A DNA stretch of 64,000 nucleotides from the IMG/VR virus record IMGVR_UViG_3300018875_000003, positions 32,001 to 96,000 of that record. One strand, given 5' to 3'. Position numbers and translations under genes: made by a program. Of this stretch, positions 6,676-41,758 are shown one piece after another (the stretch's first letter is position 1; each line of letters begins with the position of its first letter). This stretch comes from a virus. Under the pieces are notes generated by a model. That model was not told the origin of the DNA, ran no database searches, and worked only from the letters and a program-made list of their open reading frames with translations.

Positions 6676-7761
6676 TTAGGAAACGACGCGGATAGTTTGT
6701 GGAGCTGGGTAGGAGCGCTCGAATGCCAGGTTGCGGGCAGTTGCTACTGCTTTACCTTCGTTCAGTACGCCGACACCATAACGTTCTTTGATTTTGATTG
6801 TTTGGATATCGCGCATTGGATCGTCGAATTGCTCAGTGGACAATGGATCTTTCACCAGCAAGATACCGATGTTGGACTTGTCTACCACGTACATGTCGAA
6901 TTTCTTCTGCTCGTAGTTGAACGGCGCGAACGGCGTGAAGTTCAGGTTGATGCTGAACGGGATACGTCCTTGTACGCTGTCTGGGTTGATTTGCAGGTTC
7001 GTGATTTGGGAACCGCCCAGTGCTGCGTGAGACAGGGAATCCATCAGGTCGTTTTTGAAGAACACGCTCCAAGTCAGTGGGTGCATGATGATGTCTGTCG
7101 GGTTAAAGCCGTTAGCCATTACCGAGATGAACAGGTCGATCATGTCCTCAGTACTCATTGTGTTATTCAGGTTGCCATCGATATCGCGACCAGTTGTACC
7201 CGCTTCGGTGTACTTCTGACGGATGTCGTTGTCGAACACCAGGTGTCCGTGCTTGGAGAACTGATTGAAGATTTTTTCTTCTTTCAGACGAGCCATTGCT
7301 TCGCCCGCTTTACGAACGAGAATACCGATTACGTCCCATTGGGAGTCGTTGATCATCTCATCAGTTACGCGGACCACCATACCGGATTTACCAACTTTGA
7401 CTTCTTGTGTGCGGTGCATTTGGAAGTCAACAGTTTCTTCCAGGTAGGATTGGCTTTCCCCGATATCGTGCGCACGCATTGCGCCGATAGACGGGAACTC
7501 GATGGAGCGGCCTTCTGTCAGACGAACCGTCTGCATCAGCTGGGAGCCCAGATACAGTGGCTCAGCTGCTTCGCGCATCATACCTGTGATGACGCGAGGG
7601 ATCAGGATGGAAGCATCCTGCGTGGACAGTGCTTCTTTTACGCCAACCAGTTCGGATTTCGGAATCTGTGTCCAATCCTCTTCCAGGTTAAGCTGACGCT
7701 GCATTCTCTCGTAGACTTTCATAGCCTCGGGTTTCAGTTGCATTTCGTTAAGATTAATCAT
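6676..7761 (-). CDS. Major capsid protein (HK97-like fold)
   Basis: 361 aa; LIPRVI, K.G..V.VTDEMINDSQWD, IMHP and ERYGVGVL motifs; follows protease/scaffold. Confidence 0.85.
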   Translation of the reverse strand: MINLNEMQLKPEAMKVYERMQRQLNLEEDWTQIPKSELVGVKEALSTQDASILIPRVITGMMREAAEPLYLGSQLMQTVRLTEGRSIEFPSIGAMRAHDIGESQSYLEETVDFQMHRTQEVKVGKSGMVVRVTDEMINDSQWDVIGILVRKAGEAMARLKEEKIFNQFSKHGHLVFDNDIRQKYTEAGTTGRDIDGNLNNTMSTEDMIDLFISVMANGFNPTDIIMHPLTWSVFFKNDLMDSLSHAALGGSQITNLQINPDSVQGRIPFSINLNFTPFAPFNYEQKKFDMYVVDKSNIGILLVKDPLSTEQFDDPMRDIQTIKIKERYGVGVLNEGKAVATARNLAFERSYPAPQTIRVVS

Positions 7762-7792
7762 TAGTGGCTAGGCCCCTTTCCTTGAATACGGA

Positions 7793-9019
7793 TTATTTAT
7801 GAAGCAGGATGCGGACCGCACCGATCGAACCTTTGAAGTCCCAACCTGTTGGGATACCAGGAATCTGGCCAGTCGCTTTATACGTCGCAGTTACATTTTT
7901 CGGAGTTGTGCCAGCAGTGTTGTCCACTGTTACAACAACCAGACCGAGTTCAGCATTTACATAGTCAGGTGTGATTACTTGACCGTCGAATTTCACTTCG
8001 ATTGTGCCGGCTACAGCTGGCAGATGTTCCAGACGGAAGTCGTGGCGGCCGGATTGTCCAGGCTGGATTGTACCGATCACTTCGTCAGCGTAAGGAACTT
8101 CGATGTTGGCACCGTTGGTCAGGCCAGGGATACCTTGCGGCTTGTACTGACCTTTATCCCAGTTCGCATACGTTTTCTCGTATGGGTAGCCAGGGAAGCC
8201 ATCAGTTGCACCAATGTCTTCAGGACGGAAACCGGAGTTGTTAATCCATTTGTCATCTGTGCGCATGTCTTCTTGAGACCAGCCAACCCATTTCAACCAT
8301 CCTTGCGGCGGCATGTTGGTTTCAACAGCCCAGATCTGGCCGATAACCTGATCACGCATGATGCTTTCTTTTTCCATAAGAGCTTTCAGCTCATCCAGTG
8401 TAGTAGCAGCTTTGATCTGCTCACGGATTTGGTCGAAGTCAGCAACAATGATGCGTCCGTTCTCATCGGACATTACCAGGTCGCCGTTTTTCGCAGGGCG
8501 CGCAGGGTTAGCATCGTAGAAGGAACCCCAGTGGATTTCTTCAGCATCCGCTTTAACCGGGATGTAAGGCAGCTCGATGTAGATTTCGTTTTCGATGGTT
8601 GGCTGCATGCCGTTGAATCCATCGACGAACTCTTCATACAGGTTGCCGTAGGCTACGCCGATTGCCTTGTTGGCTTTACGCACATACGTAGAACCGTCTG
8701 TTTTGTGGACGTCGTTTACGTCTTTACCGCCGTTTGCCAGTGTCAGAACAGGCAGCAGTGTGTTGCTGTCAAAGTCCTTGATTACGCCATCTTGGGAAGC
8801 GCCGAAGCTGTCCGTTGCCGGTGCTACTGCACGACCTTTAGGGATGACCACCCAGCCATCGCCACCGAAATGATAGCGGAACAGGCGTTTAAGCCGTGGG
8901 TCGATTGCGAATTTCTCACCCGGAGAATCGTGAGTACCTGCCTGCAGCTTGGTATTCGTGCGGTTGTAGTTATCCGGGGTGTCTTTAATTGGGCCAGAGT
9001 TGCCAGAGAACAATGCCAT
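7793..9019 (-). CDS. Putative head decoration/structural protein
   Basis: Between protease and MCP; VVIPKGRAVA motif; ATG at 9019 chosen from the AAGGAG RBS. Confidence 0.55.
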   Translation of the reverse strand: MALFSGNSGPIKDTPDNYNRTNTKLQAGTHDSPGEKFAIDPRLKRLFRYHFGGDGWVVIPKGRAVAPATDSFGASQDGVIKDFDSNTLLPVLTLANGGKDVNDVHKTDGSTYVRKANKAIGVAYGNLYEEFVDGFNGMQPTIENEIYIELPYIPVKADAEEIHWGSFYDANPARPAKNGDLVMSDENGRIIVADFDQIREQIKAATTLDELKALMEKESIMRDQVIGQIWAVETNMPPQGWLKWVGWSQEDMRTDDKWINNSGFRPEDIGATDGFPGYPYEKTYANWDKGQYKPQGIPGLTNGANIEVPYADEVIGTIQPGQSGRHDFRLEHLPAVAGTIEVKFDGQVITPDYVNAELGLVVVTVDNTAGTTPKNVTATYKATGQIPGIPTGWDFKGSIGAVRILLHK

Positions 9020-9067
9020 TGTGAATGTCACTCCTTAATTTGGTTTACTTGCCTTTATAGGCTTTTG

Positions 9068-10558
9068 TTATTTCTTGCTGCCAAACATGCCCTTAAACAT
9101 GTTCAAAGCATCTTGGCCAGTCATGACTTTCGGCTTTTCGCTCTCGTCAGTACTGAGTCCAGGATTTGCTACGCTGCCTGGTACCGGCTTCGCCGTTTTG
9201 GTTTCTGCCAGCAGATCAGCTTTCGTATTTTCCAGAGACTCTTTGGTGCGGGTTGCGTGAGCTTGTACAGCTTCCTCGTAATCCACGCCTACCACATCAG
9301 GCTTGTTCAGATCGCGTTTCAGCTTAACAACGCTCTCTGCCAGTGCGCGATGGGAGTTCTCATTTGCTTCGGCCAGTGCTGCTGTCAGACGCTGAACCTC
9401 AGCTTTCGACTCAGCCAGTTGACCGCTGATACGTTGGTTTTCCATGACCAGATTGGTGATGGTTTGCTGCATCTCGGTTACATTAACCGTAGGTGCTGCC
9501 GGAACCGGTGGCGTAGCTTGTGCGCCTTCAGCAGTTGTTGCTGTTGGAGTCGCAGGCGGTTCTGTAGTTACTGCTGCAGGTTCAGTTCCTGCTGCTTGTG
9601 CGCCTTCAGCAGTCGTTGCTGCGGCAGGCTCCGGAGTTGTAGTTGGACCAGCAGCTGGCGGAGTTGTTTGTGCGCCTTCCTGTGTAGCTGCAGGTACTGC
9701 AGGTGCAGCAGGATCCGCTGGGGTTGTTCCTTTTGGTGTCGTCATCGGTTGGCTCCCTTCCTCGAAAGTAAGCAGGTTTTGGAAAGCTGCTTTCTGACTT
9801 TCATTCATTTGTTCGAATAGATTCACACTCGGCGCGTTTACATGCTGCATCAGGCCTTCAGCGACCTGGAAGATGTGCATGTGTACGGATTCCTGTGAAG
9901 CAGCAGATGTTTTATCATCGCTTCCGTCTTCGTAAACGGCAGTTACGCCAGTATTGCCGGCGTATTCGTCAGCCGGAACGTTTACATATGAAACCTCGCG
10001 GCCATAGGTTGTTCCGATGATGAAGTGGCAAGTTTGGTCTTCGTAGTTCTCACCTGGGTAGTGTTCACACCACTCCTGAGTGCGGTCCGTTCCGCAGATG
10101 TTACATGTTACTTTGTCGGTGTTCGCGCCGATGGAAACCGTCTGATAACGTCCATCCAGTACTTTTTCAATAGCAACCGGATCGGTAATTTCGACTGTAA
10201 ACATCAGTCCTGGTTTACCAGACATCGTAACGTCATGGAACTCTGCTTTCAGGATACGTCCGATTGGTTCACCGTCCACATCATTGTGGTGGGTTAGCAC
10301 CGGCTTCTGCCGTGGCGATGTCCAACTTTCCAATCCCGCGGTCAATCCTTCTTTGGTGTAGTACGTAAAGTTACGTGTACGGCCAACGTGGATGGCTTCG
10401 ATCTGAACGATCAGTTTCTTTGGCTTCCCCTTCGCTGATTCATTCAGAACTTGTATTGATTCCTGCTGAATCTTCCCGATCGTGCCGAGATTTTCATTCA
10501 GGATTTTTGGTACCCATTTCTTTTGCTCATGCTCTTTGAGCGAATACACATTCCTCAC
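9068..10558 (-). CDS. Prohead protease with C-terminal scaffold region
   Basis: PVLTHHN..PIGRI, YQTVSIG, CNICG..CEH and EVSYVNVPAD motifs; Pro/Ala/Thr linker then coiled coil. Confidence 0.8.
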   Translation of the reverse strand: MRNVYSLKEHEQKKWVPKILNENLGTIGKIQQESIQVLNESAKGKPKKLIVQIEAIHVGRTRNFTYYTKEGLTAGLESWTSPRQKPVLTHHNDVDGEPIGRILKAEFHDVTMSGKPGLMFTVEITDPVAIEKVLDGRYQTVSIGANTDKVTCNICGTDRTQEWCEHYPGENYEDQTCHFIIGTTYGREVSYVNVPADEYAGNTGVTAVYEDGSDDKTSAASQESVHMHIFQVAEGLMQHVNAPSVNLFEQMNESQKAAFQNLLTFEEGSQPMTTPKGTTPADPAAPAVPAATQEGAQTTPPAAGPTTTPEPAAATTAEGAQAAGTEPAAVTTEPPATPTATTAEGAQATPPVPAAPTVNVTEMQQTITNLVMENQRISGQLAESKAEVQRLTAALAEANENSHRALAESVVKLKRDLNKPDVVGVDYEEAVQAHATRTKESLENTKADLLAETKTAKPVPGSVANPGLSTDESEKPKVMTGQDALNMFKGMFGSKK

Positions 10559-12765
10559 TGAGTTTCACCCCCTTCGTCATGGATTGTTAAATCACATTCG
10601 CAGTTCGTGTGAAACGGAGGAATGCGATAGAATATAGCAATCTCATCGTAGGATGAGAGTTCTACCAGAGAGATTGTTTCTTGCGACCGCTCATAGCAAG
10701 TCGAGCAGCTTCCAGGCTCATTCAGTGCCTTTACGCTTTCCACTCCGCTTCTGCCCAGCGCCAGCACATAGCCGTAATGGTATGTCTTAATCACTGTCGT
10801 TTTTGCGATCGCTTTGATACGGTGCCTGATGGATTCGAATACGCTGCGGGTGATGATCGCTGCATTGCTGCTATCTTCAACGCCCTTCAGCTTCTCGTTC
10901 AGCACGCCGTGGATTGTCTCTTCGATGAGATCGAAAGAGTCCTGGGTAAATTCAGATACGATCCGGAGCGATTGCGACAGGTTAATCCCTGGCGTCTTGG
11001 AAAGCTTCAGCTGAGCTGCTGCCTTCTTGGCTCCTTCCAGAAGCACGTTACGGGCTTCTCTCTGAATAACCTGATCCATTTTGTCCTTACTGAAATGAAT
11101 AGCGGAGAGTGCTTCGGCCGGCGACGTCATCGGGAATCGATTACGCGCCTGTGACCGCTGAATCTCGCCAATCACGTCGGCCTCCATGGTGTCGAAGATG
11201 TTGACCATCTCTTTATGGAGTGACTGCACCGATTCAAGAGGGATTTTAAATTCCTGCTGAATCTGCTGATATTGGCTGCTTTCTTTCACTGGGAATTGGA
11301 TCGCTCTATCCAGTGCTTCTCTGATCGATTCCGTGCTTTTCTTCGGACCCGAGCGTGTGCCGTTTTGATTGGTCGGCTGCTGCTTGTTGTCCGTTTCTGC
11401 ACTTTTCTCTGCTGCAAGGCTGGCTGCATGCTCAGCTTGTTGCATACCGACCATTTGATAGTACAATCGCGTTTCGTCGGCTACAGGGTCTTGGCCCAGG
11501 TTCTTACGCGTCTCATCCCATGTCTGAACGTTATGCTCAAACTTGAAGATTTCGTGCGTCTCTACCTTAATCCGCATTTCCTGTTCAATTTCGTTAAAGA
11601 CGAAGTTGACTTTGAAATCCGGGTTTGCCATTGGATCATAGCCGCCCTCAACCAGAAGTTCTTCGATAATGAATTTATCAATATACATCTGGATGATCTG
11701 CTGCCATCCTTTGACCCGATCCGCTTTATTACCGCTCATGGCGTCTGCCGTGTTGCGGTTGGCTGTATCTCCTCGACCGAAGTCAACCTGAGACATTCCG
11801 AGACCCGAGAACACGCGGTTCTCGAAGTAATCCAGATACGTTCGTCCATCGATCGCAGTAATATTAACGGCTTCAACCTTATGGCGTTCTGGAATTACGA
11901 TCGCCCCGTCTGTCGGCATATCTTCGATAACCGACCGCATATTGTCCAGCTCTTCATCGCTGGCTTCGTAGCCAGGTTTATCGATACCCACCGTGTAGGT
12001 GAGAAGCGGGAAAATATGACGATACAGCAGTAAGGCTGCGTTCTCTTCCATCTTCCGAAGAAGTTGAATGTCTCCGATTACCGGAGCCAGCCATGGAAGG
12101 CCGAATGCTTCGCCTGCCGGACGGTTCGCTGCGATATGGACGATATCCTGAATTTGAAAATCCTTCGTATCGCCGCCTGATCCGGTGCTTTGCGTGTACT
12201 TTTTGATGTTCCCGGAATCATCCCGAGTAATCGAGATGGTCGCCGGTGCAAGTCTAAAGTAGCCGCCGACTGGATCTTTCGCTGGCAGGACTGCCGTTGC
12301 CGGTAAACCCGGCGCAAGCCCTACTCCGCCTTTAGCTCTCGCCTTGGCGATAAATGAGTTGTGGAATCGCACCATATCTTCTGCAATCCCAAAGAAAAGT
12401 TCATCGGTCGGCACCTGAGTGGCGATAGCCATCATATCAAGCCGCGTCTTGACGTACTGCAGTGCTTCGTCGTTCTTGCCCTTGAATGTATATCCGGACT
12501 TCACAATCAGCTCGCTGTATTTCATGACGGTCTGCGTCAGATAACTATCTCGCTCAATGGCGGTGGCAATGGCTGCAAGATCCGCTTTTGGACTTTCTGC
12601 GTCGCTTCCGCCTGAGCTATTCTTTACCGCATACCCTATTCGCTTTACCTGGGTTGCCTTTGGATCACGATTGACAGTGACGCCGCTGCTTGAGCTTCCG
12701 CTCGATGGAGTAGTTGCGTTCTTTAGGCCAATACGTGACAATGCCTTCATCAAAAGCTTAGCCAA
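10555..12765 (-). CDS. Portal protein with C-terminal MuF/gp7-like head morphogenesis domain
   Basis: DIVHI...GEAFGLPWL portal-like motif; C-term CSTC..IPPFHTNCEC; between TerL and protease. Confidence 0.75.
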   Translation of the reverse strand: MAKLLMKALSRIGLKNATTPSSGSSSSGVTVNRDPKATQVKRIGYAVKNSSGGSDAESPKADLAAIATAIERDSYLTQTVMKYSELIVKSGYTFKGKNDEALQYVKTRLDMMAIATQVPTDELFFGIAEDMVRFHNSFIAKARAKGGVGLAPGLPATAVLPAKDPVGGYFRLAPATISITRDDSGNIKKYTQSTGSGGDTKDFQIQDIVHIAANRPAGEAFGLPWLAPVIGDIQLLRKMEENAALLLYRHIFPLLTYTVGIDKPGYEASDEELDNMRSVIEDMPTDGAIVIPERHKVEAVNITAIDGRTYLDYFENRVFSGLGMSQVDFGRGDTANRNTADAMSGNKADRVKGWQQIIQMYIDKFIIEELLVEGGYDPMANPDFKVNFVFNEIEQEMRIKVETHEIFKFEHNVQTWDETRKNLGQDPVADETRLYYQMVGMQQAEHAASLAAEKSAETDNKQQPTNQNGTRSGPKKSTESIREALDRAIQFPVKESSQYQQIQQEFKIPLESVQSLHKEMVNIFDTMEADVIGEIQRSQARNRFPMTSPAEALSAIHFSKDKMDQVIQREARNVLLEGAKKAAAQLKLSKTPGINLSQSLRIVSEFTQDSFDLIEETIHGVLNEKLKGVEDSSNAAIITRSVFESIRHRIKAIAKTTVIKTYHYGYVLALGRSGVESVKALNEPGSCSTCYERSQETISLVELSSYDEIAIFYRIPPFHTNCECDLTIHDEGGETQ

Positions 12766-12842
12766 GAATCACATCTCCTTTCCGAGCAAGTCACTTTGTC
12801 TTTATCAATTATATATTAAACTTGTAACACGTTACACTTTGA

Positions 12843-14096
12843 CTAGACGCGGTATCCATTTGCCTCCAAATACTCACTCGCCCATTCGTCGGTGATTTCA
12901 CCGACCTCTTGCAAATCCTCTAATATCCTTAAAAATCTTCGTATTTCCTCCTTTTTTTGAATCAGCTGATATTGTTGGCTATAAAAAATAGCTTCTTGCT
13001 GATAAAAACGAGTCATATCCGTAACACTGGAATCGTATTGTTTTTTGCTTTCCAAAAGGGAGCCAACCATGATTTCGGCCAGTGCATTCATCGATTCATT
13101 GGATTCAGATTGATTGTAGAGCCAGTTCTTTACACCAGTGCCGGACTTGGACTCCAGCTGCTGATGAAACCACTGCTGCTTCGACACATACGCTTCCTTC
13201 TGGTCATCAACCAGCGCGTATTGTCCTTTGAGAGAAGTCAGCTTATCTTTGATCGTTCGGAAGGACAACATAATGTAAGCTGCTGCCGAGGATTTGTCTG
13301 CCAGCGTATTCAGCTGCAAGATCATCTCCTTCAGATCATCTTTCATAACGATGGTCGGGTCGGCAATCAGGAACTGGAACTGATCGATCATCTGGGAATA
13401 CATCACATACCGGTTCCGGTGAACGAAGGATGTGTCTGCCAAAGACACATGCAGCGTCTCCATTTGTTTACGGGCGACATCCTGGTTGTAAATCTCCTTC
13501 TCCATCGAAGCGATGTTTGTATTCTCCGTGTCTTCCTCATGGCTGTGTTCTTCTGAATAGGCGTCTTGAATTTGATCTGTCAGATCGTTGAAGCTCTGTT
13601 CGGCTTGCACCCATTGATCGATCATAGACGACTCGGCATTCGCTACAGCTTCCAGGTCGGAGTTATCCGTAATCTGATTACGGTAGTGATTATCCAGAAA
13701 GGTTTGCTGCAATTGGCAGGAAGCCTTCATTCGGTAAAGGATCGTATACAGTTCAGCATCGCCAGAGCCCCGTGGACCGCATAGGATGTCCTCTTGCGCA
13801 ATGATGGCATCTTGCTTGCCGCTGGTGAGCGCCGCCTTATACGCGGCAAAATCCTTCGTCTGGTTGCGGTTGTCGATGACCTGCAGCAGGGCAGCAATCC
13901 GTTCAACCAGTTCAGCATAGCCGGTCAGGGCGCTGGTGATCGTAAAGTCCTCGGACCGTTTGATCTTCTGTACAGTGGATGGGTCGATCCGGAAGAATCG
14001 ATCTTTTTTCGGCAGCTTTACGTCTGGGCGATAATTGATTTGGCTGCGCTCATAGGACGTGTCTATCCCGCGCTGTCCAAAGATATCTTCAGTCAT
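12843..14096 (-). CDS. Hypothetical helical protein
   Basis: 417 aa; AGGAGG RBS. Confidence 0.7.
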   Translation of the reverse strand: MTEDIFGQRGIDTSYERSQINYRPDVKLPKKDRFFRIDPSTVQKIKRSEDFTITSALTGYAELVERIAALLQVIDNRNQTKDFAAYKAALTSGKQDAIIAQEDILCGPRGSGDAELYTILYRMKASCQLQQTFLDNHYRNQITDNSDLEAVANAESSMIDQWVQAEQSFNDLTDQIQDAYSEEHSHEEDTENTNIASMEKEIYNQDVARKQMETLHVSLADTSFVHRNRYVMYSQMIDQFQFLIADPTIVMKDDLKEMILQLNTLADKSSAAAYIMLSFRTIKDKLTSLKGQYALVDDQKEAYVSKQQWFHQQLESKSGTGVKNWLYNQSESNESMNALAEIMVGSLLESKKQYDSSVTDMTRFYQQEAIFYSQQYQLIQKKEEIRRFLRILEDLQEVGEITDEWASEYLEANGYRV

Positions 14097-14262
14097 TGAT
14101 TCGACCTCCTGTTATATGTAAGGCGCAGACCGTTGTAGTCTGCGCCCCAGGGAAAGAGAGTTGATGAGCCTAGCCAGAAAGGATACAGGGGATTTTGTGC
14201 CTTCCACCCGCCCGCGCATTTACAGGAAGGGACAACGCATTACATCAGGCATTCCAGAGGAT

Positions 14263-16023
14263 TTAGAACTTGGCTCTTGTCGGGCGGTGTTTCGTGTTTC
14301 CACGACCCCATACACTTGCGCCCGACCGGCTTCTTTTCCCGCCGTACCCGAGGGCTACCTTTTCCAGGTGCCAGTTCGGATTATCTCGAAGCTCGCGCTC
14401 CGGTTTCTTATTTTGTGTGCTGAATACATCCCGGTTGTCTCCGAACACCCGATCGGCAATCTTTTGCTCGAATTGGTTGTTGACGGTGAACGCCCGGCTG
14501 GCCACGTTGAATTTCTCCAGAATCTTCGCGATATCTGGGTATTCGATCGTGAATCCAAGGATCGTCAGCATGAACGCATCCAGTGCGTGCTCGTTTTCAG
14601 AAGTATAGATTGGTTTACCGTTTTGAGAGATACGGATAACCTGGTAGTCCATCATTTGCTTCCAAACCATATCGTCAAAGGCAGAGAGGATAATGCGGTC
14701 TCGTTCCAAGAGGATGGCAGTCTGGTTGACCATGAAGTTTTTGGCGTCTTTCTTGTCGATCTCCCGAGTCGCCGGATCACGAATCTCAATCGTTTGGGAG
14801 AACTGAATCCGTTTAACCTTTTTATCAAGGCGCGTATATGGGTTTTCTCGACCGTGAAGACGGAGGGCTTCGATCTGATATTCACCGCTACCGGCATCCA
14901 CATAGATGAATGCTGGATCGTAGATGTCATTCAGCTCGATGATGCGTTTAACGGCGTTATCGAAGGTGAAATCACCACGAGGAATTTCTGATCGGAGGGC
15001 AACCCTGAATTTCTTATGGACTTCATCGAACTCGGTGACGATAATCTGGGTGGCTGCGCCGTATTTATCCCAGTCAACACCGATGATCCGAAGCGCCCGT
15101 GGAGCAGGGTTATTTATAGTATAAGGCCCATAATAAACGATGTCATCCAGGTTAAGACCCTGCTTCTGATACTGCTCGCGCTCATACAGGTTCAGCTCGC
15201 GATAACTATAGTAGAATTGGCTTTTTGCTCGCTCTACCGCGTCTTTATTGAAAACTCCGACAGTTTCCTCACCGAACTCTGCTTCAACCTCGTGAATGTA
15301 ACCTTGAGCGGTCATTGTTGCACGAAGCTCGCCTTCCATCCGCTCATCAAAGTCAGGGTTGACTTTCGAAGGGAAGTGATAGGCTTTGTAACCCGTATCC
15401 GGGTTCGTGCAAATGTCATAGAAGAAGTCGCGCTTACCGGTCGGCGTGGAGCTAACCCAAATCCCGATACGCTTCGGATCTTCCATCGCAATGGCCGTAA
15501 CTGCATCGATACCGTCACGAGACATGTAATCGACCTCATCGAGAAACAGCCAGTCCGCCCGCTGACCACGGACAGAGGCACCGGCTTGGCTACCTGCATT
15601 GGCGCCGGCCGTAAAACCCATGATCTTCGAACCGTTACCGAACGATGCGATAAACGGGTTCTTTGTGATCGTTACGGACGCAGCCAGCTCCTCGCAGTCG
15701 CGCACAAGCTCCTGGAGACGCATGAAGATCAGTCGAACCTGGTGCTCGTATGGTGTTGCGACAAGAAGACGACTATTCTTATGATGAAACGCGTACCAAA
15801 GACAGAAGACTACCATTGTTTCTGTTTTACCTACACGTCGTCCCATTCGGGCGGCGATACGTCTGTCTCCACTGAGAATGCCCTTGATCATCATTCGCTG
15901 ATACCAGCGGGCTTTCCAAGCGTTCCCCTTCGGATCCTTCAGCTTCCAATATGCCCACTTAACAGGATCTGAGCGTATTTCTCGCTCCATCTCTATTAAT
16001 TGCTGTTCTGTTTCTTTTGCCAT
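14263..16023 (-). CDS. terL: Terminase large subunit
   Basis: Walker A GRRVGKT, Walker B LFLDEVD, SSTP coupling motif, nuclease IGVDWD and HALDA. Confidence 0.92.
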   Translation of the reverse strand: MAKETEQQLIEMEREIRSDPVKWAYWKLKDPKGNAWKARWYQRMMIKGILSGDRRIAARMGRRVGKTETMVVFCLWYAFHHKNSRLLVATPYEHQVRLIFMRLQELVRDCEELAASVTITKNPFIASFGNGSKIMGFTAGANAGSQAGASVRGQRADWLFLDEVDYMSRDGIDAVTAIAMEDPKRIGIWVSSTPTGKRDFFYDICTNPDTGYKAYHFPSKVNPDFDERMEGELRATMTAQGYIHEVEAEFGEETVGVFNKDAVERAKSQFYYSYRELNLYEREQYQKQGLNLDDIVYYGPYTINNPAPRALRIIGVDWDKYGAATQIIVTEFDEVHKKFRVALRSEIPRGDFTFDNAVKRIIELNDIYDPAFIYVDAGSGEYQIEALRLHGRENPYTRLDKKVKRIQFSQTIEIRDPATREIDKKDAKNFMVNQTAILLERDRIILSAFDDMVWKQMMDYQVIRISQNGKPIYTSENEHALDAFMLTILGFTIEYPDIAKILEKFNVASRAFTVNNQFEQKIADRVFGDNRDVFSTQNKKPERELRDNPNWHLEKVALGYGGKRSRSGASVWGRGNTKHRPTRAKF

Positions 16024-19088: not shown

Positions 19089-19262
19089 CTACTTTCCTTC
19101 GTTTTTCTCCATTGTGATCGCTTTGAGCAGCAAACGCCGACCCTCGCTCGCCCAATCGCCAGGCTTGATATTGCTGAAATGCTCATCGATCTCCGTATCC
19201 ACTTCGCGGATAATAACTTGGATTTTCGGAATCTTCGGCGCTTTGTGTTCTGCCATGTTCAT
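19089..19262 (-). CDS. parR: ParR-like ribbon-helix-helix adaptor (57 aa, not in ORF track)
   Basis: ATG overlaps parM TGA; MNMAEHKAPKIPKIQVIIREVDTEIDEHFSNIKPGDWASEGRRLLLKAITMEKNEGK has a strand-helix-helix pattern. Confidence 0.65.
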   Translation of the reverse strand: MNMAEHKAPKIPKIQVIIREVDTEIDEHFSNIKPGDWASEGRRLLLKAITMEKNEGK

Positions 19263-20506
19263 GATGCCTCGCTTTCAAATACGTTCTTAATAAAACGATC
19301 GTAGACTGCTTCGAAGTTCAGCGAACCATCCTCCTGCGGCTTGATCTGGCTGATAGCTGCACGGATATAGAAGCCGTACACGTTTGCCATTTGCGGATCA
19401 TCGACAGCAACGAAGGCTTGCACCTTGCGGGCAACAAACTCTTCACGCAGTGCGTCCTGGAAGATGTGGGCGCCGCCACCGGTCAGCAAGATAATCTTCA
19501 CGCGGTTTGCATGCTGACCCCACGATGTGATGACCTCGTGTGCAATGACTTCGGCAATCTCTTTAGCAGCCTGCTGCACTAGCGGAGCCATGTCGTGCTG
19601 ATCGCCATTGAAGTCGATCTTTATGCCGCGTACAGCATCGTCCAGGTCTGCGTCGGTTGGCGTGTAGGCGATGCCGAAATTTTCATCAAAGTATCGCGGC
19701 ATGCTCACTCTCAGGCGCTTATACAGTTCAGATGTTGCCACAGTGGAAGCGTAAGTACCCTGCTCGTCCATAAACACGCCTTCGGAGAACAGCGCATAGT
19801 CTGTCGTCAGGTGGCCGATGTCGATAACAGCCGTCATGGATCGATACAGTTCAGTTGTCAGGAGACCTTCTCTCGTAAACGCGAATTGCGAATAGGATAC
19901 GGTGCCTTCTGGCTGTCTGACAATTTCAGAGCCAATCACGTTGATGTTCTTGGTAATCGTCTTACCGAATCCAAGGTAGAATGTCACCGTGAATGTCTGA
20001 TTAATGTATTCTTCAAGTCTCTTCTTGATTCCCAGCTCGTAGTCATCGTTTGGCAGGCCGGTTGTCACGTACACATTGTAATCCCCATCCTCGTGCGGCA
20101 GGCACATGGCTAGGTTTGTTTCAAACAGGACACGGAAACTCTGATCGCTTGCCCGGTCGTGGTTGGTGGTACGGTTTGTCACCAGAAGCGCATTGCTCTT
20201 CATTGCCTGGGTGCCAACGTGGAAGATTCCATCGCTAGTCTTCACCATCAAACGATCCTCATCGATTGTTGTGTTTCTCAAAGAGTTTGCATATTTCTCG
20301 TTTGTTGTTTGCACAGTCGATGGCATTACGCCTGCTTGACCTGTGCTGGATAGACGCTTCGCTCCGCCGAATCCGATATCGAGACCAACGATCTCATAAC
20401 CGAATGCGTCAGCGAGTACTTGCAATACTGTCTGGCGCTGGCCTGTCTCCTCTTGACCTGTTTCAATAGCTTTTGCCTTTGCTGCTGCACCTGTTTTAAC
20501 CGCCAT
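19259..20506 (-). CDS. parM: ParM/StbA-family actin-like partition ATPase
   Basis: GLDIGFG..K, TGLP, QPEG, VIDIGHLTTD, LLTGGGA, PQMANVYG. Confidence 0.9.
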   Translation of the reverse strand: MAVKTGAAAKAKAIETGQEETGQRQTVLQVLADAFGYEIVGLDIGFGGAKRLSSTGQAGVMPSTVQTTNEKYANSLRNTTIDEDRLMVKTSDGIFHVGTQAMKSNALLVTNRTTNHDRASDQSFRVLFETNLAMCLPHEDGDYNVYVTTGLPNDDYELGIKKRLEEYINQTFTVTFYLGFGKTITKNINVIGSEIVRQPEGTVSYSQFAFTREGLLTTELYRSMTAVIDIGHLTTDYALFSEGVFMDEQGTYASTVATSELYKRLRVSMPRYFDENFGIAYTPTDADLDDAVRGIKIDFNGDQHDMAPLVQQAAKEIAEVIAHEVITSWGQHANRVKIILLTGGGAHIFQDALREEFVARKVQAFVAVDDPQMANVYGFYIRAAISQIKPQEDGSLNFEAVYDRFIKNVFESEAS

Positions 20507-29066: not shown

Positions 29067-29115
29067 TCCTGGGCGTATGCGTATTTTGCGTATGTTGCTA
29101 TATGTGTGTGATCGA

Positions 29116-29170
29116 TATCATATATCGTATTTCATACGTTGTATGCTCATTTCATATTTCGTATATCATA
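29116..29170. repeat. Heptad repeat array (TWTCRTA-like)
   Basis: tatcata tatcgta tttcata cgttgta tgctca tttcata tttcgta tatcata. Confidence 0.7.
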
Positions 29171-29277
29171 TGCTATCGAAAGAGGTGAACCCACATCCGA
29201 AAATTTCTTGCTACTTGAGTATGATTTCATATAGCCTATATAGGTATCTTATGATGAAATAGGATGCTGTAGACGAA

Positions 29278-30965: not shown

Positions 30966-31100
30966 ATGATTAAATCACTGGTTTCAATCATTCGAGGTGA
31001 CAATGAGGACATAAGCACTGTCCACCTGTTCGCTTGGCATATTATTGGCGCCATGCTTGCTTCTGCTGTTGCACTTGCTGTCGGTCATACGTTTATATAG
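30966..31100 (+). CDS. 44-aa membrane peptide (not in ORF track)
   Basis: GAGGTGG RBS; C-terminal hydrophobic helix; stop abuts the hammerhead. Confidence 0.55.
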   Translation: MIKSLVSIIRGDNEDISTVHLFAWHIIGAMLASAVALAVGHTFI

Positions 31101-31161
31101 CCGCCTGATGAGTCCCTGGCGTGGGACGAAACCAGAATGTCGTGAGATATGCTGGTCGCGG
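31101..31161 (+). ncRNA. Hammerhead ribozyme (type I topology)
   Basis: ccgc-CUGAUGA-guccc/gggac-GAAA-ccag/cugg-UC^-gcgg; complete core; predicted cleavage after C31157. Confidence 0.9.
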
Positions 31162-31192
31162 ATTGCCGCAGCTTATACAAGGAGGAATGTTT

Positions 31193-31741: not shown

Positions 31742-32047
31742 ATGACTAAACAATCTAAAGCATTGAATGCACTCTGCGTTTTGTATCCTCATGCGCGCCC
31801 TGCTGCAGGTGAAGGATACAATATGATCCGTGCTGAGCGTTATGACAACCCTGTTGACTTTCAGAATCTTGTTACCTGTCTTCTTGCTGCGTTCCCCTCT
31901 TCCCTATTCGATCATGCAGATTATGTGGAGGTTAGATTCTCCGCCGACACGATCACAGTGTACACTGGCCACTTCCTGGTTGAGTCTGACGTATATAACG
32001 TTCGATTCCTCTATGAAGCTTCGTACCAGACAGACACTGACTCATGA
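31742..32047 (+). CDS. Hypothetical protein
   Basis: GGAGG RBS; 101 aa. Confidence 0.65.
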   Translation: MTKQSKALNALCVLYPHARPAAGEGYNMIRAERYDNPVDFQNLVTCLLAAFPSSLFDHADYVEVRFSADTITVYTGHFLVESDVYNVRFLYEASYQTDTDS

Positions 32048-34639: not shown

Positions 34640-34957
34640 ATGACTCAGCGTAAAGGCTTCAATGATTTCTTCACGTTCACCCGAGATGATAAGTTTATTC
34701 AGAATAAGACCTATCTCATTCATCTGATGCAGCTGGTCGAGTCCATGGATGAAAACTGCGATATGTCCGTTACTTCCACCGGTAGGATCCTGATGCTCTT
34801 TTTCGAAGAAGATGGCATGTCTGCACACATCGATGTTAATTTGGACCACATCCTCACCTATATTGATCGGTTACTCAAGCTGCAAGCTCACACTGATTTC
34901 TTCACTACACAAGTTGACCGCGATAAGATATACGAATGCTTCACCATTAACGAATGA
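34640..34957 (+). CDS. Hypothetical protein
   Basis: AGGAGG RBS. Confidence 0.65.
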   Translation: MTQRKGFNDFFTFTRDDKFIQNKTYLIHLMQLVESMDENCDMSVTSTGRILMLFFEEDGMSAHIDVNLDHILTYIDRLLKLQAHTDFFTTQVDRDKIYECFTINE

Positions 34958-34985
34958 AGGCTACCAATCGGTGGCCTTCTTTTTT
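34956..34985 (+). terminator. Intrinsic terminator
   Basis: gaaggctacc-aatc-ggtggccttc + T6. Confidence 0.7.
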
Positions 34986-35012
34986 ATTACACACACTATT
35001 GGAGGGTTTCCC

Positions 35013-35264
35013 ATGAAAATTAGATACGCCGTATTATTCTTTGTTGTCCTGTTCGCGATTGTTGCATTCAAGAACTATGAGCCAGAGCCGCGCTTTGTTG
35101 AATATGTAGTTGGATCCGGCGACACCCTGTGGTCTATCGCAAATCAAAGCGACATCGATACCGACAAACGTGCAATCATCGCATATATGATGGACAAGTC
35201 TCATATCAAGCAAGCTGCTGATCTGCAGCCGGGCATGGTTATTCAGGTGCCGATGCTCAAATGA
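35013..35264 (+). CDS. Membrane-anchored LysM protein (YneA-like)
   Basis: N-terminal TM then YVV.SGDTLWSIA..LQPGMVIQVP. Confidence 0.8.
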   Translation: MKIRYAVLFFVVLFAIVAFKNYEPEPRFVEYVVGSGDTLWSIANQSDIDTDKRAIIAYMMDKSHIKQAADLQPGMVIQVPMLK

Positions 35265-35398
35265 ATACAGCTCATGTGATTTTCATCCTTTGCCTGGTTG
35301 CAGCCACATTTCTTGAGCATTACATAGATAGCAGCACTGATTAATATCTCGCTTTGTATGGCGTTACGTTTATGTTAAAATCGGGGAGCCACGCTCCC

Positions 35399-35456
35399 TA
35401 TTCTGTCTGCGGTTATCCAACCGTACTGATGAGCTGTCGTGCAGCGAAACAGAATA
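35399..35456 (+). ncRNA. Hammerhead ribozyme (type III topology)
   Basis: uauucug-UC^-ugcgguu/aaccgua-CUGAUGA-gcug/cagc-GAAA-cagaaua; predicted cleavage after C35407. Confidence 0.92.
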
Positions 35457-35474
35457 AAACTGGAGGTGTTTCTT

Positions 35475-35963
35475 ATGACACAACTCGAACAAACTAATCG
35501 TGTATTTGATGCTGCTGATTTCCGTGAAGGCATGCAGGAAGAATATGAATTTCAATATACTAATTCCAAGATGTCCGTTTCTACTGCGTTTCAATTGTTG
35601 AATGAACAAGGATGGGAAGTCCATGACGGAGACGTGATCGATGGACTCAAGCGTGCTTTGGCGGATGCCCTTCACTCTGTCATCATGGAGCATATGCTGG
35701 ATGCCTACCAAGTTGTCGATTTCGACCTTTTGTATAGTGACAGCTTTCTTGGCAATCCAGGCGGATACACCGATGAGTATGGTGTCTTCTGGGTCGAAGC
35801 CGAATCGATGTGCCATTACAAAATCGATCATAAGGCTCGCAAATTCACATCCGGTCGCATCAAGCTCAGTGCATCTATCTATAACGATGACGCGAAGCTG
35901 AATGAAATGCTCGGTGCAATCCGGAAGCATGTTGATGATCAAGTCAAAGCACTGAATCTTTAA
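35475..35963 (+). CDS. Hypothetical protein
   Basis: GGAGGTG RBS immediately after the hammerhead. Confidence 0.7.
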   Translation: MTQLEQTNRVFDAADFREGMQEEYEFQYTNSKMSVSTAFQLLNEQGWEVHDGDVIDGLKRALADALHSVIMEHMLDAYQVVDFDLLYSDSFLGNPGGYTDEYGVFWVEAESMCHYKIDHKARKFTSGRIKLSASIYNDDAKLNEMLGAIRKHVDDQVKALNL

Positions 35964-36456: not shown

Positions 36457-36648
36457 ATGGATTTTTTGTTTTCAACCTTGGCATTCATCTTGTTTGAATC
36501 CATCGGCGTGTGGGGGCTTATCATTTGCCTGCACGATCTGCGCAATCCTTCGATTGGATTCTGGTATAGATTCAAATATACAGGTGTCGTTATTCTTCTG
36601 ATGCTTGTTATCTTCGCTTTTTACTTGTTAGATATTCATACATCATAG
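36457..36648 (+). CDS. Small two-TM protein
   Basis: AGGAGG RBS; two hydrophobic helices. Confidence 0.6.
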   Translation: MDFLFSTLAFILFESIGVWGLIICLHDLRNPSIGFWYRFKYTGVVILLMLVIFAFYLLDIHTS

Positions 36649-36654
36649 GAAGTA

Positions 36655-36717
36655 TTTCATATTTCATACGTTATACGATATATTTCCTACGATGTATGAT
36701 GTATTTCGTATTTCATA
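36655..36717. repeat. Heptad repeat array, 9 in-phase units
   Basis: tttcata tttcata cgttata cgatata tttccta cgatgta tgatgta tttcgta tttcata. Confidence 0.75.
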
Positions 36718-36736
36718 GGATTGGAGGACATATCAT

Positions 36737-36973
36737 ATGAATTTAATCGTAGCTTACCAGAAGTCCATCACTCCCCTCAAACCTGATGTATGGGAAGTCG
36801 GCAAGCGATATGAGATCACTGACAACCATGGCAATCTAGTCTATGGTGATTTTTACGCTGCTCATGGTCGCCAGCTGTGCTTCACTAATTGCTTTTGCGG
36901 AGATGACTACGAACCTGGAGAGTACTTTTATTTCCCGGATGAAATCAAGGAGGCTGTTGTCGTTGACGATTAA
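36737..36973 (+). CDS. Hypothetical protein
   Basis: GGAGG RBS; MNLIVAY. Confidence 0.65.
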   Translation: MNLIVAYQKSITPLKPDVWEVGKRYEITDNHGNLVYGDFYAAHGRQLCFTNCFCGDDYEPGEYFYFPDEIKEAVVVDD

Positions 36974-37868: not shown

Positions 37869-37900
37869 AGGTCTGCTCTTTCGAGGGCAGGCCTTTTTTT
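37869..37900 (+). terminator. Intrinsic terminator
   Basis: aggtctgctc-tttc-gagggcaggcct + T tract. Confidence 0.75.
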
Positions 37901-38080: not shown

Positions 38081-38320
38081 ATGGAGAAATTTATCATCAT
38101 CGATCGCAATGATCGACAGATTTTGCACGGTCCGCAGCACTTGCTGGTGGACACTTTAAAGGAGCTGGGTACGCATCCAGACTTCTTTTACGACTACTTC
38201 AGCGGCTTGGATGATCAAGACTACCAGGAGCTGTACGACAGCACGGTGTCGGAGTTGTCCGATGAATTTAAAATTGTGGAGGTTAACGATGAACATTTAT
38301 ACGTCTGTGAGCGGTATTGA
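38081..38320 (+). CDS. Hypothetical acidic protein
   Basis: AGGAGG RBS. Confidence 0.65.
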   Translation: MEKFIIIDRNDRQILHGPQHLLVDTLKELGTHPDFFYDYFSGLDDQDYQELYDSTVSELSDEFKIVEVNDEHLYVCERY

Positions 38321-38576
38321 TCTACAGGATCGAATCTACTTTCTCCAGAAGACATTTCTACCGATTCAACTCAATGTGGATTTGATTCGGGCGGACACCC
38401 TGCATCTGCAGGATAAGGATGACGAGGCTGCCGAGCTGGTCGGCAAGATCGAGGAAGAATGCGCAAAGCTGGGCATTAAGATCTATCAGCCGATGCCGAT
38501 CAGCATGAAGTCCGGCGAAGCTTATCGGCAGAACGCTGTCCAGTGTTACGAGGCGCAAACGAAAATTGACGCATAA
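38289..38576 (+). CDS. Hypothetical protein
   Basis: GGAGG RBS before MNIYTS. Confidence 0.6.
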   Translation: MNIYTSVSGIDLQDRIYFLQKTFLPIQLNVDLIRADTLHLQDKDDEAAELVGKIEEECAKLGIKIYQPMPISMKSGEAYRQNAVQCYEAQTKIDA

Positions 38577-38643
38577 AGTCGGCTTGGCGACTATAAATAG
38601 GCCTTTGGCCAAGCGCGGGCTCCCGGGTCGTCGGGAGTATGGC
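38577..38643 (+). ncRNA. Pistol-like ribozyme
   Basis: P1 AGUCG/CGACU; loop GCUUGG pairs with CCAAGC (pseudoknot); AUAAAUAG linker; P2 GCC/GGC; GCG; P3 GCUCCCG/CGGGAGU. Confidence 0.78.
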
Positions 38644-38674
38644 AACACATACTATTCCAAACGAGGTGCTTACT

Positions 38675-38887
38675 ATGAATAACAACGAAATTGTACGCTA
38701 TTTTATGAAACCTATTCAGAATAACTTCGCTCTTGTCGTGGCAACCCGCAGCAAGGGCGATATCACGATCGAAGAAGGCGCGAAGCCTTTTGTGAAAGGT
38801 CGTTACACGATGTATGCCAAGAATCGTCAGGCCCTCGAATCGAGAGTCCATGAGGTGCTGTCTCAGCAAGATCCTTTCGCTTCTTGA
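38675..38887 (+). CDS. Hypothetical protein
   Basis: GAGGTG RBS just after the pistol motif. Confidence 0.65.
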   Translation: MNNNEIVRYFMKPIQNNFALVVATRSKGDITIEEGAKPFVKGRYTMYAKNRQALESRVHEVLSQQDPFAS

Positions 38888-41204: not shown

Positions 41205-41534
41205 ATGAACGCGAATATCACTATTAAAGGTCTGTCTATCCACAACATAAAGCCGGTTGAAGGTTCCGATCGTGAAGAGCAAACACATATCAAGCTGGAT
41301 GAGATCACATTCAGTCTGACTCCGGATTCTCCGAAGCCACAGATTCACCCGATGGTGGATTCGCTCATGGATGATCTGATGGATCATCTCCCTGGATTCC
41401 TCGGTAAGAAACACGGCATGGGCGATCTGCCAAGCCACATCATTGTTGGCGGTCCGTTCGGTCCGAATGACATTCCAGACGAAATCAAGGACGCGATGTC
41501 AGAAGAACTCAAGAAAATGCTCGGCATCCACTAA
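41205..41534 (+). CDS. Hypothetical protein
   Basis: GGAGG RBS. Confidence 0.65.
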   Translation: MNANITIKGLSIHNIKPVEGSDREEQTHIKLDEITFSLTPDSPKPQIHPMVDSLMDDLMDHLPGFLGKKHGMGDLPSHIIVGGPFGPNDIPDEIKDAMSEELKKMLGIH

Positions 41535-41669
41535 TTCATATATCATATGAAATATTAAATACGAAATACGATCTTGGTCTATATCATACGATATAGGCCT
41601 TTTTCGTATGTAATTCTTCATATCATATGATATATGAAATATGTTATACGATATAGATCATATATCATA
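41534..41669. repeat. Heptad repeat array (two blocks)
   Basis: attcata tatcata tgaaata ttaaata cgaaata ... tatcata tgatata tgaaata tgttata cgatata gatcata tatcata. Confidence 0.75.
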
Positions 41670-41758
41670 CGATTTGTTGATAGATGTGGGTTGATCGAAC
41701 CTTCGGTCATCCACCTGTTTCAGCAAATACATTCACTTAATATAAGGAGGCATTGGCA

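Follow-up and report, generated by a model that had tools for sequence, protein, structure and literature searches.

A hammerhead ribozyme between two small phage genes

We analysed a 64,000-nucleotide (nt) stretch of viral DNA (IMG/VR record IMGVR_UViG_3300018875_000003, positions 32,001 to 96,000; hereafter the window), focusing on the region between two small genes on its + strand, one for a LysM protein and the next for a protein of 162 amino acids (aa). From 5' to 3', the LysM gene is followed by a spacer, a GC-rich hairpin, a type III hammerhead ribozyme, a Shine-Dalgarno sequence and the start codon of the second gene (Table 1). An initial annotation of this DNA had proposed a type III hammerhead just upstream of the ribosome-binding site, preceded by the small hairpin gggagc-cac-gctccc and ending in a stem III close to the GGAGG of the gene that starts at 35475. 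Each of these elements is present: the hairpin lies directly before the hammerhead, the hammerhead has a full core, and stem III ends 5-6 nt before the GGAGG and 19 nt before the ATG.

The ribozyme scores 44.2 bits against RF00008, with an E-value of 2.2e-6 over the whole window and 7.6e-9 locally, a match far beyond chance. Stem III pairs AUUCUGU with ACAGAAU (35400-35406 with 35449-35455) and gains an extra U35399-A35456 pair in the fold. Stem I (UGCGGUU/AACCGUA, 35408-35414 with 35419-35425) is closed by the loop AUCC, and stem II (GCUGU/GCAGC, 35433-35437 with 35441-35445) by the loop CGU. The catalytic core is complete, with CUGAUGA at 35426-35432 and GAAA at 35446-35449, and the Watson-Crick pairs that flank it are canonical (15.1-16.1, 10.1-11.1 and 1.1-2.1; here A35449-U35406, G35433-C35445 and U35408-A35425). 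The GUC cleavage triplet occupies 35405-35407, with the predicted cut after C35407 and the new 5' end at U35408. In both the cmscan alignment and the minimum free energy (MFE) fold, the core sits at the junction of three helices, of which stems I and II end in loops and stem III is open. The MFE fold of 35383-35474 consists of exactly the hairpin and this three-way junction (z -1.87). Judged by its sequence, the type III hammerhead is real and is predicted to cleave itself after C35407.

Table 1. Features of the hammerhead locus and of its surroundings in the window (ORF, open reading frame).
Feature	Coordinates	Strand	Basis and remarks
Type III hammerhead ribozyme	35400-35455	+	Rfam RF00008 (Hammerhead_3), clan CL00010, aligned end to end
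GC-rich hairpin GGGAGC-CAC-GCUCCC	35384-35398	+	MFE fold; abuts hammerhead stem III
Shine-Dalgarno GGAGG (35462-35466) and ATG (35475-35477)	35462-35477	+	Sequence
Downstream gene, 162 aa	35475-35963	+	ORF
LysM gene, 83 aa, with N-terminal hydrophobic segment	35013-35264	+	Pfam PF01476, E 8.1e-8
Spacer, ~119 nt	35265-35383	+	Between LysM stop and hairpin
Strong terminator-like hairpin, 10 pairs and T run	34956-34989	+	Terminator scan
Pistol ribozyme	38577-38644	+	RF02679, 49.1 bits, cut-off 34.5
Type I hammerhead candidate	31099-31163	+	RF00163, 29.7 bits, cut-off 34, E 7.5e-6 local

Conservation of the hairpin-ribozyme block

The sole annotated record similar to the window is a 215-kilobase (kb) circular "plasmid" of Paenibacillus urinalis (NZ_CP118109.1). 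It carries an orthologous hammerhead (42.7 bits against RF00008, for which the curated gathering score is 48.5) after an orthologous LysM gene, the two LysM proteins being 55 per cent identical. There, no base separates the LysM stop codon TAA from the hairpin, and the ribozyme follows; the 119-nt spacer of the window is absent, which leaves no room for a promoter. What the two records share is a block made of the hairpin and the ribozyme through TGGAGGT, and the flanks of this block differ. Differences within the ribozyme stems are confined to the loops and the closing pair of stem I. The downstream gene also differs, and in P. urinalis is an unannotated ORF whose ~70-aa product resembles a membrane protein with two helices (locus L005, 1562-1780). 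At the position of the window's ATG, after the hammerhead and the GGAGG, P. urinalis has ATA, and its record has no annotated gene between 62466 and 63017. Closer relatives, of ~89-95 per cent identity, keep the stretch collinear in four DNA sequencing runs (X2, X6, X7 and X9).

The P. urinalis counterpart of the hairpin is GGGGGG-CCU-CUCCCC. Among the six pairs, two are changed on both sides (A-U to G-C and C-G to G-C) and one on a single side, and all of them still pair. Such a pattern is what would be expected of an RNA hairpin under selection; as covariation between two sequences it has no statistical power, being equalled by 124 of 500 shuffles. A loose terminator scan flags 35383-35399 as terminator-like. 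The tail after the hairpin is UAUUCUGU, which in the fold is part of ribozyme stem III. Since the ribozyme can be made only by transcription through the hairpin, the hairpin should not be an efficient terminator. We also considered a Shine-Dalgarno/anti-Shine-Dalgarno switch, in which the 3' arm of the hairpin would pair with the ribosome-binding site, and rejected it because by eye only four bases are complementary. We found no description of the abutting hairpin in the literature that we searched; the supplementary alignments of Perreault et al. (2011, PMC3088659), which we have not seen, may show it, and we offer it as an observation to check, not as a discovery.

Position of hammerheads with the same stem III

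We took a census of type III hammerheads that share the window's stem III. The scan matched 68 loci in viral contigs and at least 120 in genome contigs, the latter mostly from metagenome-assembled Patescibacteria. Among the matches listed, deduplication left 191 unique hammerheads, of which 56 come from viral contigs and 135 from genome contigs. A hairpin was counted if it was perfect, had at least 5 base pairs (bp) including at least 3 G-C pairs, and ended 0-4 nt before stem III. By this measure, 100 of the 191 hammerheads among the matches listed have an abutting hairpin, with a gap of 0 nt in 68 of the 100, and these hairpins comprise 95 distinct sequences. At a control position 100 nt upstream in the same set, a hairpin was found in 19 of 187.

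In the viral set, the median distance from the stop of the upstream long ORF to the start of the hairpin is 7 nt (no more than 15 nt in 26 of 27), and that from the ribozyme to the next start codon is 23 nt. Where a hammerhead lies within 60 nt of a stop codon, a hairpin starts 0-20 nt past that stop in 19 of 22 viral cases, as it does for 24 of 33 hammerhead-linked stops among the genome matches listed. For other long-ORF stops of the same loci, the counts are 114/704 (viral) and 491/1676 (genome, matches listed), with spurious frames among these control stops. Such hammerheads are thus usually laid out as stop, hairpin, hammerhead, ~25 nt and start, which leaves no space for a promoter.

Metagenome-assembled Patescibacteria (Saccharibacteria, Paceibacterota and others; loci L075-L194 of the matches listed) abound in hammerheads whose stem III is TCTGTC...GAAACAGA, and several of their contigs among the matches listed carry two copies 300-1800 nt apart. 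A literature search on hammerheads plus Patescibacteria, judged by titles and the starts of abstracts, returned nothing on point. Searched with the window's stem I pattern, viral contigs gave the P. urinalis-like record only. The same search of metagenomes gave three loci that we rejected as relatives, all of them being permuted (type II-like) hammerheads. These (L195, L196 767-794 and L197 85-112) have the window's stem I sequence in the order GAAA, stem III hairpin, GUC, stem I hairpin and CUGAUGAG, with stem II open; they directly follow a stop codon, and an ATG lies ~25 nt downstream.

The proposed promoter and operator

The initial annotation had further described an extended -10 element (TGnTAAAAT) and a degenerate operator (35355-35368) upstream of the hairpin, so that the hammerhead would trim the 5' end of a newly initiated mRNA. 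The -10 element is present as TGtTAAAAT (35373-35381) and completes a promoter-like match, TTTGTA-17-TGtTAAAAT, at 35353-35381, but both occur at the level expected by chance. The pattern TGNTAAAAT (TGnTAAAAT) has 3 matches in the window against 3.03 expected, the -35 candidate (TTTGTA or TTGTAT) matches at 3 of 6 positions, and a sigma-70 promoter scan does not list the site 35353-35381. Scored by its -35 matches, -10 matches, TG extension and spacer length, the site reaches 9.5; nine sites on the + strand and 15 on the - strand do as well or better, and the mean for shuffled sequence is 14.45 per strand. As for the operator, the repeat that forms arrays in the window (TTTCATAYG / ATATCATATG, see below) has no copy in 35250-35480.

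With the usual distance between a -10 element and the transcription start, a -10 that ends at 35381 would put the start at ~35388. This falls inside the 5' arm of the hairpin (35384-35389), and a transcript from there could not form the conserved hairpin. With the promoter at chance level, the spacer absent from P. urinalis, the start cutting into the hairpin and the other two ribozymes of the window likewise set against an upstream stop codon (see below), we do not uphold the claim that the ribozyme acts on newly initiated mRNA. The trimming itself survives in part: cleavage would give a 5'-OH at 35408 and turn the ribozyme body into the leader that precedes the 162-aa gene, while a fresh transcript as its source is not supported.

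The element and its gene block

The window belongs to a 117-kb virus record that is estimated to be 59 per cent complete. On its - strand are genes for a major head protein, portal, large terminase and a partition protein, and on its + strand is a long run of small genes that includes helicase, RNase H and UvsX-like genes. The partition gene (phrog_691, 19259-20506, - strand) adjoins the head, portal and terminase genes (6676-16023, - strand), and public DNA runs (X2 and X9) contain contigs of 211-212 kb with ~89-92 per cent identity to the window. A partition protein beside structural genes, together with relatives that are circular records or contigs 211-215 kb long, makes a large (~210 kb) tailed phage-plasmid of Paenibacillus type the best description of the element. 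Its host is probably a member of Bacillales. GC content is ~0.50 in the - strand structural block and falls to ~0.45 in the + strand small-gene block near ~28000, where the coding strand switches and the GC and AT skews flip sign.

We rejected a longer LysM ORF starting at 34812 and take the ATG at 35013 as the true start. The strong terminator-like hairpin before this gene lies between a 105-aa ORF (34640-34957) and LysM, whose ribosome-binding site is 24 nt downstream of it. A second strong intrinsic-terminator-like hairpin occurs in the same gene block at 37869-37894 (+ strand). Each of the two is followed by a gene group with a ribozyme, with no clear sigma-70-type promoter between. The 119-nt spacer after LysM has no significant structure (fold z-score -0.27). 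The 162-aa protein matched no Pfam or PHROG family, and a search of viral contigs gave no relatives of it. A search of viral contigs with the LysM protein found nothing, and one with the LysM alignment matched only the P. urinalis-like record; tblastn with the flanking proteins likewise found P. urinalis only among plasmids and had no match among phages.

Two other self-cleaving ribozymes lie in the + strand block. The pistol ribozyme, 3.1 kb downstream of the type III hammerhead, starts at the base after the stop codon of an ORF (38211-38576), ends 31 nt before an ATG at 38675, and is syntenic in the P. urinalis plasmid (63988-64052 of that record). The type I hammerhead candidate begins at, or overlaps, the stop codon that closes a 44-aa ORF, and 30 nt separate the candidate's end from a DUF488 gene (31193); a search of the P. 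urinalis plasmid gave no counterpart. Both fit a layout of stop, ribozyme and start. The candidate reads AGCCGC, CUGAUGA, stem II, GAAA, a long stem III and GUC|GCGGAU, and a competing hairpin, GCGGAUUGCCGC, overlaps the 3' strand of its stem I. A weak Hammerhead_3 match at 31079 is better read as this type I hammerhead. At E <= 0.1, Rfam matches nothing in the remainder of the 117-kb record.

Short AT-rich repeat arrays (TTTCATAYG / ATATCATATG / TATACGAT) occupy intergenic positions in the + strand block at 29115-29176, 36640-36740 and 41526-41670. The same repeat is found in the P. urinalis plasmid, downstream of its hammerhead (locus L005, 1780-1900). These arrays are probably real regulatory regions of the phage-plasmid, either binding sites for a regulator or iterons.

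A probable self-processing site on a shared transcript

The ribozyme lies between co-oriented + strand phage genes, with other self-cleaving ribozymes near. The best explanation of the locus, to which as a whole we give a probability of about 0.6, is that the hammerhead is an intercistronic self-processing site on a transcript shared by the LysM and 162-aa genes, within the early or replication-side gene block of the phage-plasmid. The RNA would be made as part of a transcript that already includes the LysM gene and the hairpin, and the ribozyme would cut it after C35407. This would leave an upstream RNA whose 3' end consists of the hairpin, 9 nt more (UAUUCUGUC) and a 2',3'-cyclic phosphate, and a downstream RNA whose first base, U35408, has a 5'-OH and is paired in stem I. 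In the downstream RNA, 6 nt would separate the folded ribozyme body from the Shine-Dalgarno sequence that serves the 162-aa gene. Each cistron would thereby come to lie on an RNA of its own, with its own fate and with ends that are defined and structured. What we infer here is that the ribozyme is co-transcribed with LysM, that it cleaves itself in vivo and that RNA stability is affected; for the first of these, the P. urinalis block that abuts the LysM stop codon may be read as indirect support.

As for the hairpin, we lean towards a role in protecting the 3' end of the upstream RNA. A broader and more tentative idea is that the block is a portable cassette that could punctuate operons without a host nuclease, by combining a protective 3' hairpin, the ribozyme cut and a ribozyme body that caps the downstream 5'-OH. 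With the abutting hairpin on 100 of the 191 hammerheads with this stem III (among the matches listed), such a cassette would occur widely in phages and, surprisingly, in Patescibacteria. It might also serve as a conserved junction for the exchange of unrelated gene modules, an idea that comes from the differing flanks in the window and the P. urinalis plasmid.

Several observations weigh against the reading of a shared, self-processed transcript. The score of 44.2 bits falls short of the RF00008 gathering score by 4.3 bits, and for this reason a default scan showed only the pistol ribozyme. By eye, the loops AUCC and (U)CGU(G) have no complementarity for a tertiary contact, and they differ in the relative; according to passages of a review (PMC6155905), contact between loops 1 and 2 is required for fast hammerhead cleavage at cellular Mg2+. 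In a search of public sequencing runs, the stretch was found in no run labelled RNA. The comparison of the block rests on one distant relative, the P. urinalis plasmid, and the census covers a single stem III, with its genome loci, among the matches listed, coming largely from Patescibacteria. For the hairpin, the main alternative is that it coaxially stabilises the short, AU-rich stem III, which explains the abutting position equally well. Finally, the hairpin of the window lies 119 nt from the LysM stop, and this spacer is kept, with an insertion of 3 nt at most, in all three of the closer relatives that cover it (X2, X7 and X9), which makes a promoter in the spacer possible. A strong terminator also stands before LysM and raises the question of how that gene is driven; for the 162-aa gene, having an internal promoter would be reasonable.

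These last points bear on the proposal that transcription begins at ~35385-35390 from an extended -10 promoter of sigma-A type (35353-35381) and that the hammerhead strips off the first ~20 nt, including the triphosphate. Such an arrangement would be the natural counterpart of the synthetic RiboJ insulator. TGtTAAAAT with TTG at -35 is a plausible Firmicute promoter, the match stands on the correct strand of a non-coding spacer that the three closer relatives retain, and the terminator upstream of LysM would make an extra promoter useful. A precedent is given in passages of PMC3088659 for halovirus HF2, in which a 5' end was mapped at the hammerhead site of an operon's first gene. We nevertheless consider this explanation unlikely: the match is at chance level and goes unlisted by the promoter scan, the supposed operator has no counterpart among the repeats of the window, P. 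urinalis has the block right at the LysM stop and lacks the spacer that would hold the promoter, a transcript from the expected start would lack part of the conserved hairpin, and in the viral census the median distance from the upstream stop to the hairpin is 7 nt.

Alternatively, the hairpin and its U-rich 3' flank could form a leaky terminator for LysM, with the hammerhead acting on read-through only and its 5'-OH marking the mRNA for decay by RNase J1, as with glmS, thereby lowering expression of the 162-aa gene. The terminator-like call at 35383-35399, the probable Bacillales host and the degradation of the glmS 5'-OH product by RNase J1 in Bacillus subtilis (passages of PMC3328962) all suit such an attenuator, and the RNase J1 precedent means that a stable structured leader is not a safe assumption in a Bacillales host. 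On the other hand, the flank UAUUCUGUCUG is not a proper U tract, and the hairpin abuts the stem III UCUGUC in 68 of 100 cases among the matches listed, where an efficient terminator would preclude synthesis of the ribozyme. The pairing of U35408 within the 7 bp of stem I should impede a 5' exonuclease, and a Shine-Dalgarno sequence and start codon come right after the ribozyme, as for an expressed gene; we therefore rate attenuation as quite improbable. Least credible of all is that the motif is an inactive relic or a functionless product of chance. The score under the gathering score, the lack of an obvious loop-loop contact and the changes between the two sequences, which affect loops and show no covariation in the ribozyme stems, would be in keeping with decay. 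These stand against an E-value of 2.2e-6 over the window with a perfect core, a block conserved though the LysM proteins are 55 per cent identical and the flanks differ, and a typical position near a pistol ribozyme that scores above its cut-off.

Comparison with known systems

Our preferred reading, a self-processing site between two cistrons, makes the locus an expected kind of element in an expected place, as phage hammerheads with pistol companions in Firmicute phages are known from passages of PMC4604425. Its value is as a compact test case: two small genes flank a ribozyme and its conserved companion hairpin, equivalent positions within 7.5 kb are taken by a pistol ribozyme and a second hammerhead candidate, and a cultured relative exists as a Paenibacillus plasmid. 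If it is true that the hairpin caps the 3' end of the upstream message, the recurrent layout would explain where such ribozymes sit, and the block would be a natural, host-independent part for separating cistrons.

Hammerheads of phages and prophages flank genes and have been proposed to process long transcripts into gene-length mRNAs (Perreault et al. 2011, passages of PMC3088659), and what we could draw from the review PMC6155905 is in line with this. The role of bacterial and phage hammerheads is still described as an open question (PMC6765202, and parts of PMC6155905). The hammerhead of the window resembles those covered in these excerpts of PMC3088659 and PMC6155905 in being intergenic, among co-oriented small phage genes of unknown function and with further ribozymes within a few kb; it differs in that the window has three kinds (type III, a type I candidate and pistol). 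In haloviruses HF1 and HF2, a hammerhead (HHphage) lies 13 nt before a start codon, and a 5' end has been mapped within 3 nt of the cleavage site (PMC3088659, in part). The short distance to the start codon is shared (13 nt there, 19 nt here). According to the same passages, however, HHphage belongs to an archaeal virus, is a core-variant hammerhead with a need for high Mg2+ and stands ahead of the gene that comes first in its transcript, whereas the layout in the window points to an internal position.

Pistol RNAs are known from Firmicutes and from the vicinity of phage genes and of other ribozymes (Harris et al. 2015, PMC4604425, in part, citing Weinberg et al. 2015). As the pistol ribozyme has a different catalytic fold, the copy in the window bears on context only. 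For glmS, excerpts of the review PMC3328962 credit Collins et al. (2007) with the finding that RNase J1 degrades the 5'-OH product in Bacillus subtilis. Like glmS, the hammerhead is predicted to cleave itself in a 5' leader and to yield a 5'-OH mRNA, in what is probably also a Bacillales host, but glmS is ligand-dependent and chromosomal, and no ligand pocket or regulation is evident in the hammerhead of the window.

Compared with type III hammerheads of RF00008, the ribozyme has the same CUGAUGA and GAAA core, GUC triplet, capped stems I and II and open stem III; its loops (AUCC and CGU) are short, and the extra abutting hairpin lies outside the family model. In phage T7, where RNase III cuts between genes, the upstream RNA comes to end in a hairpin. 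The proposed processing in the window would likewise cut between cistrons and leave a hairpin at the upstream 3' end, but in T7 the cut is made by a host protein. RiboJ is man-made and removes a variable 5' leader. The hammerhead of the window would also remove a 5' leader; the two differ in where the hairpin stands, downstream of the ribozyme in RiboJ and upstream of it here.

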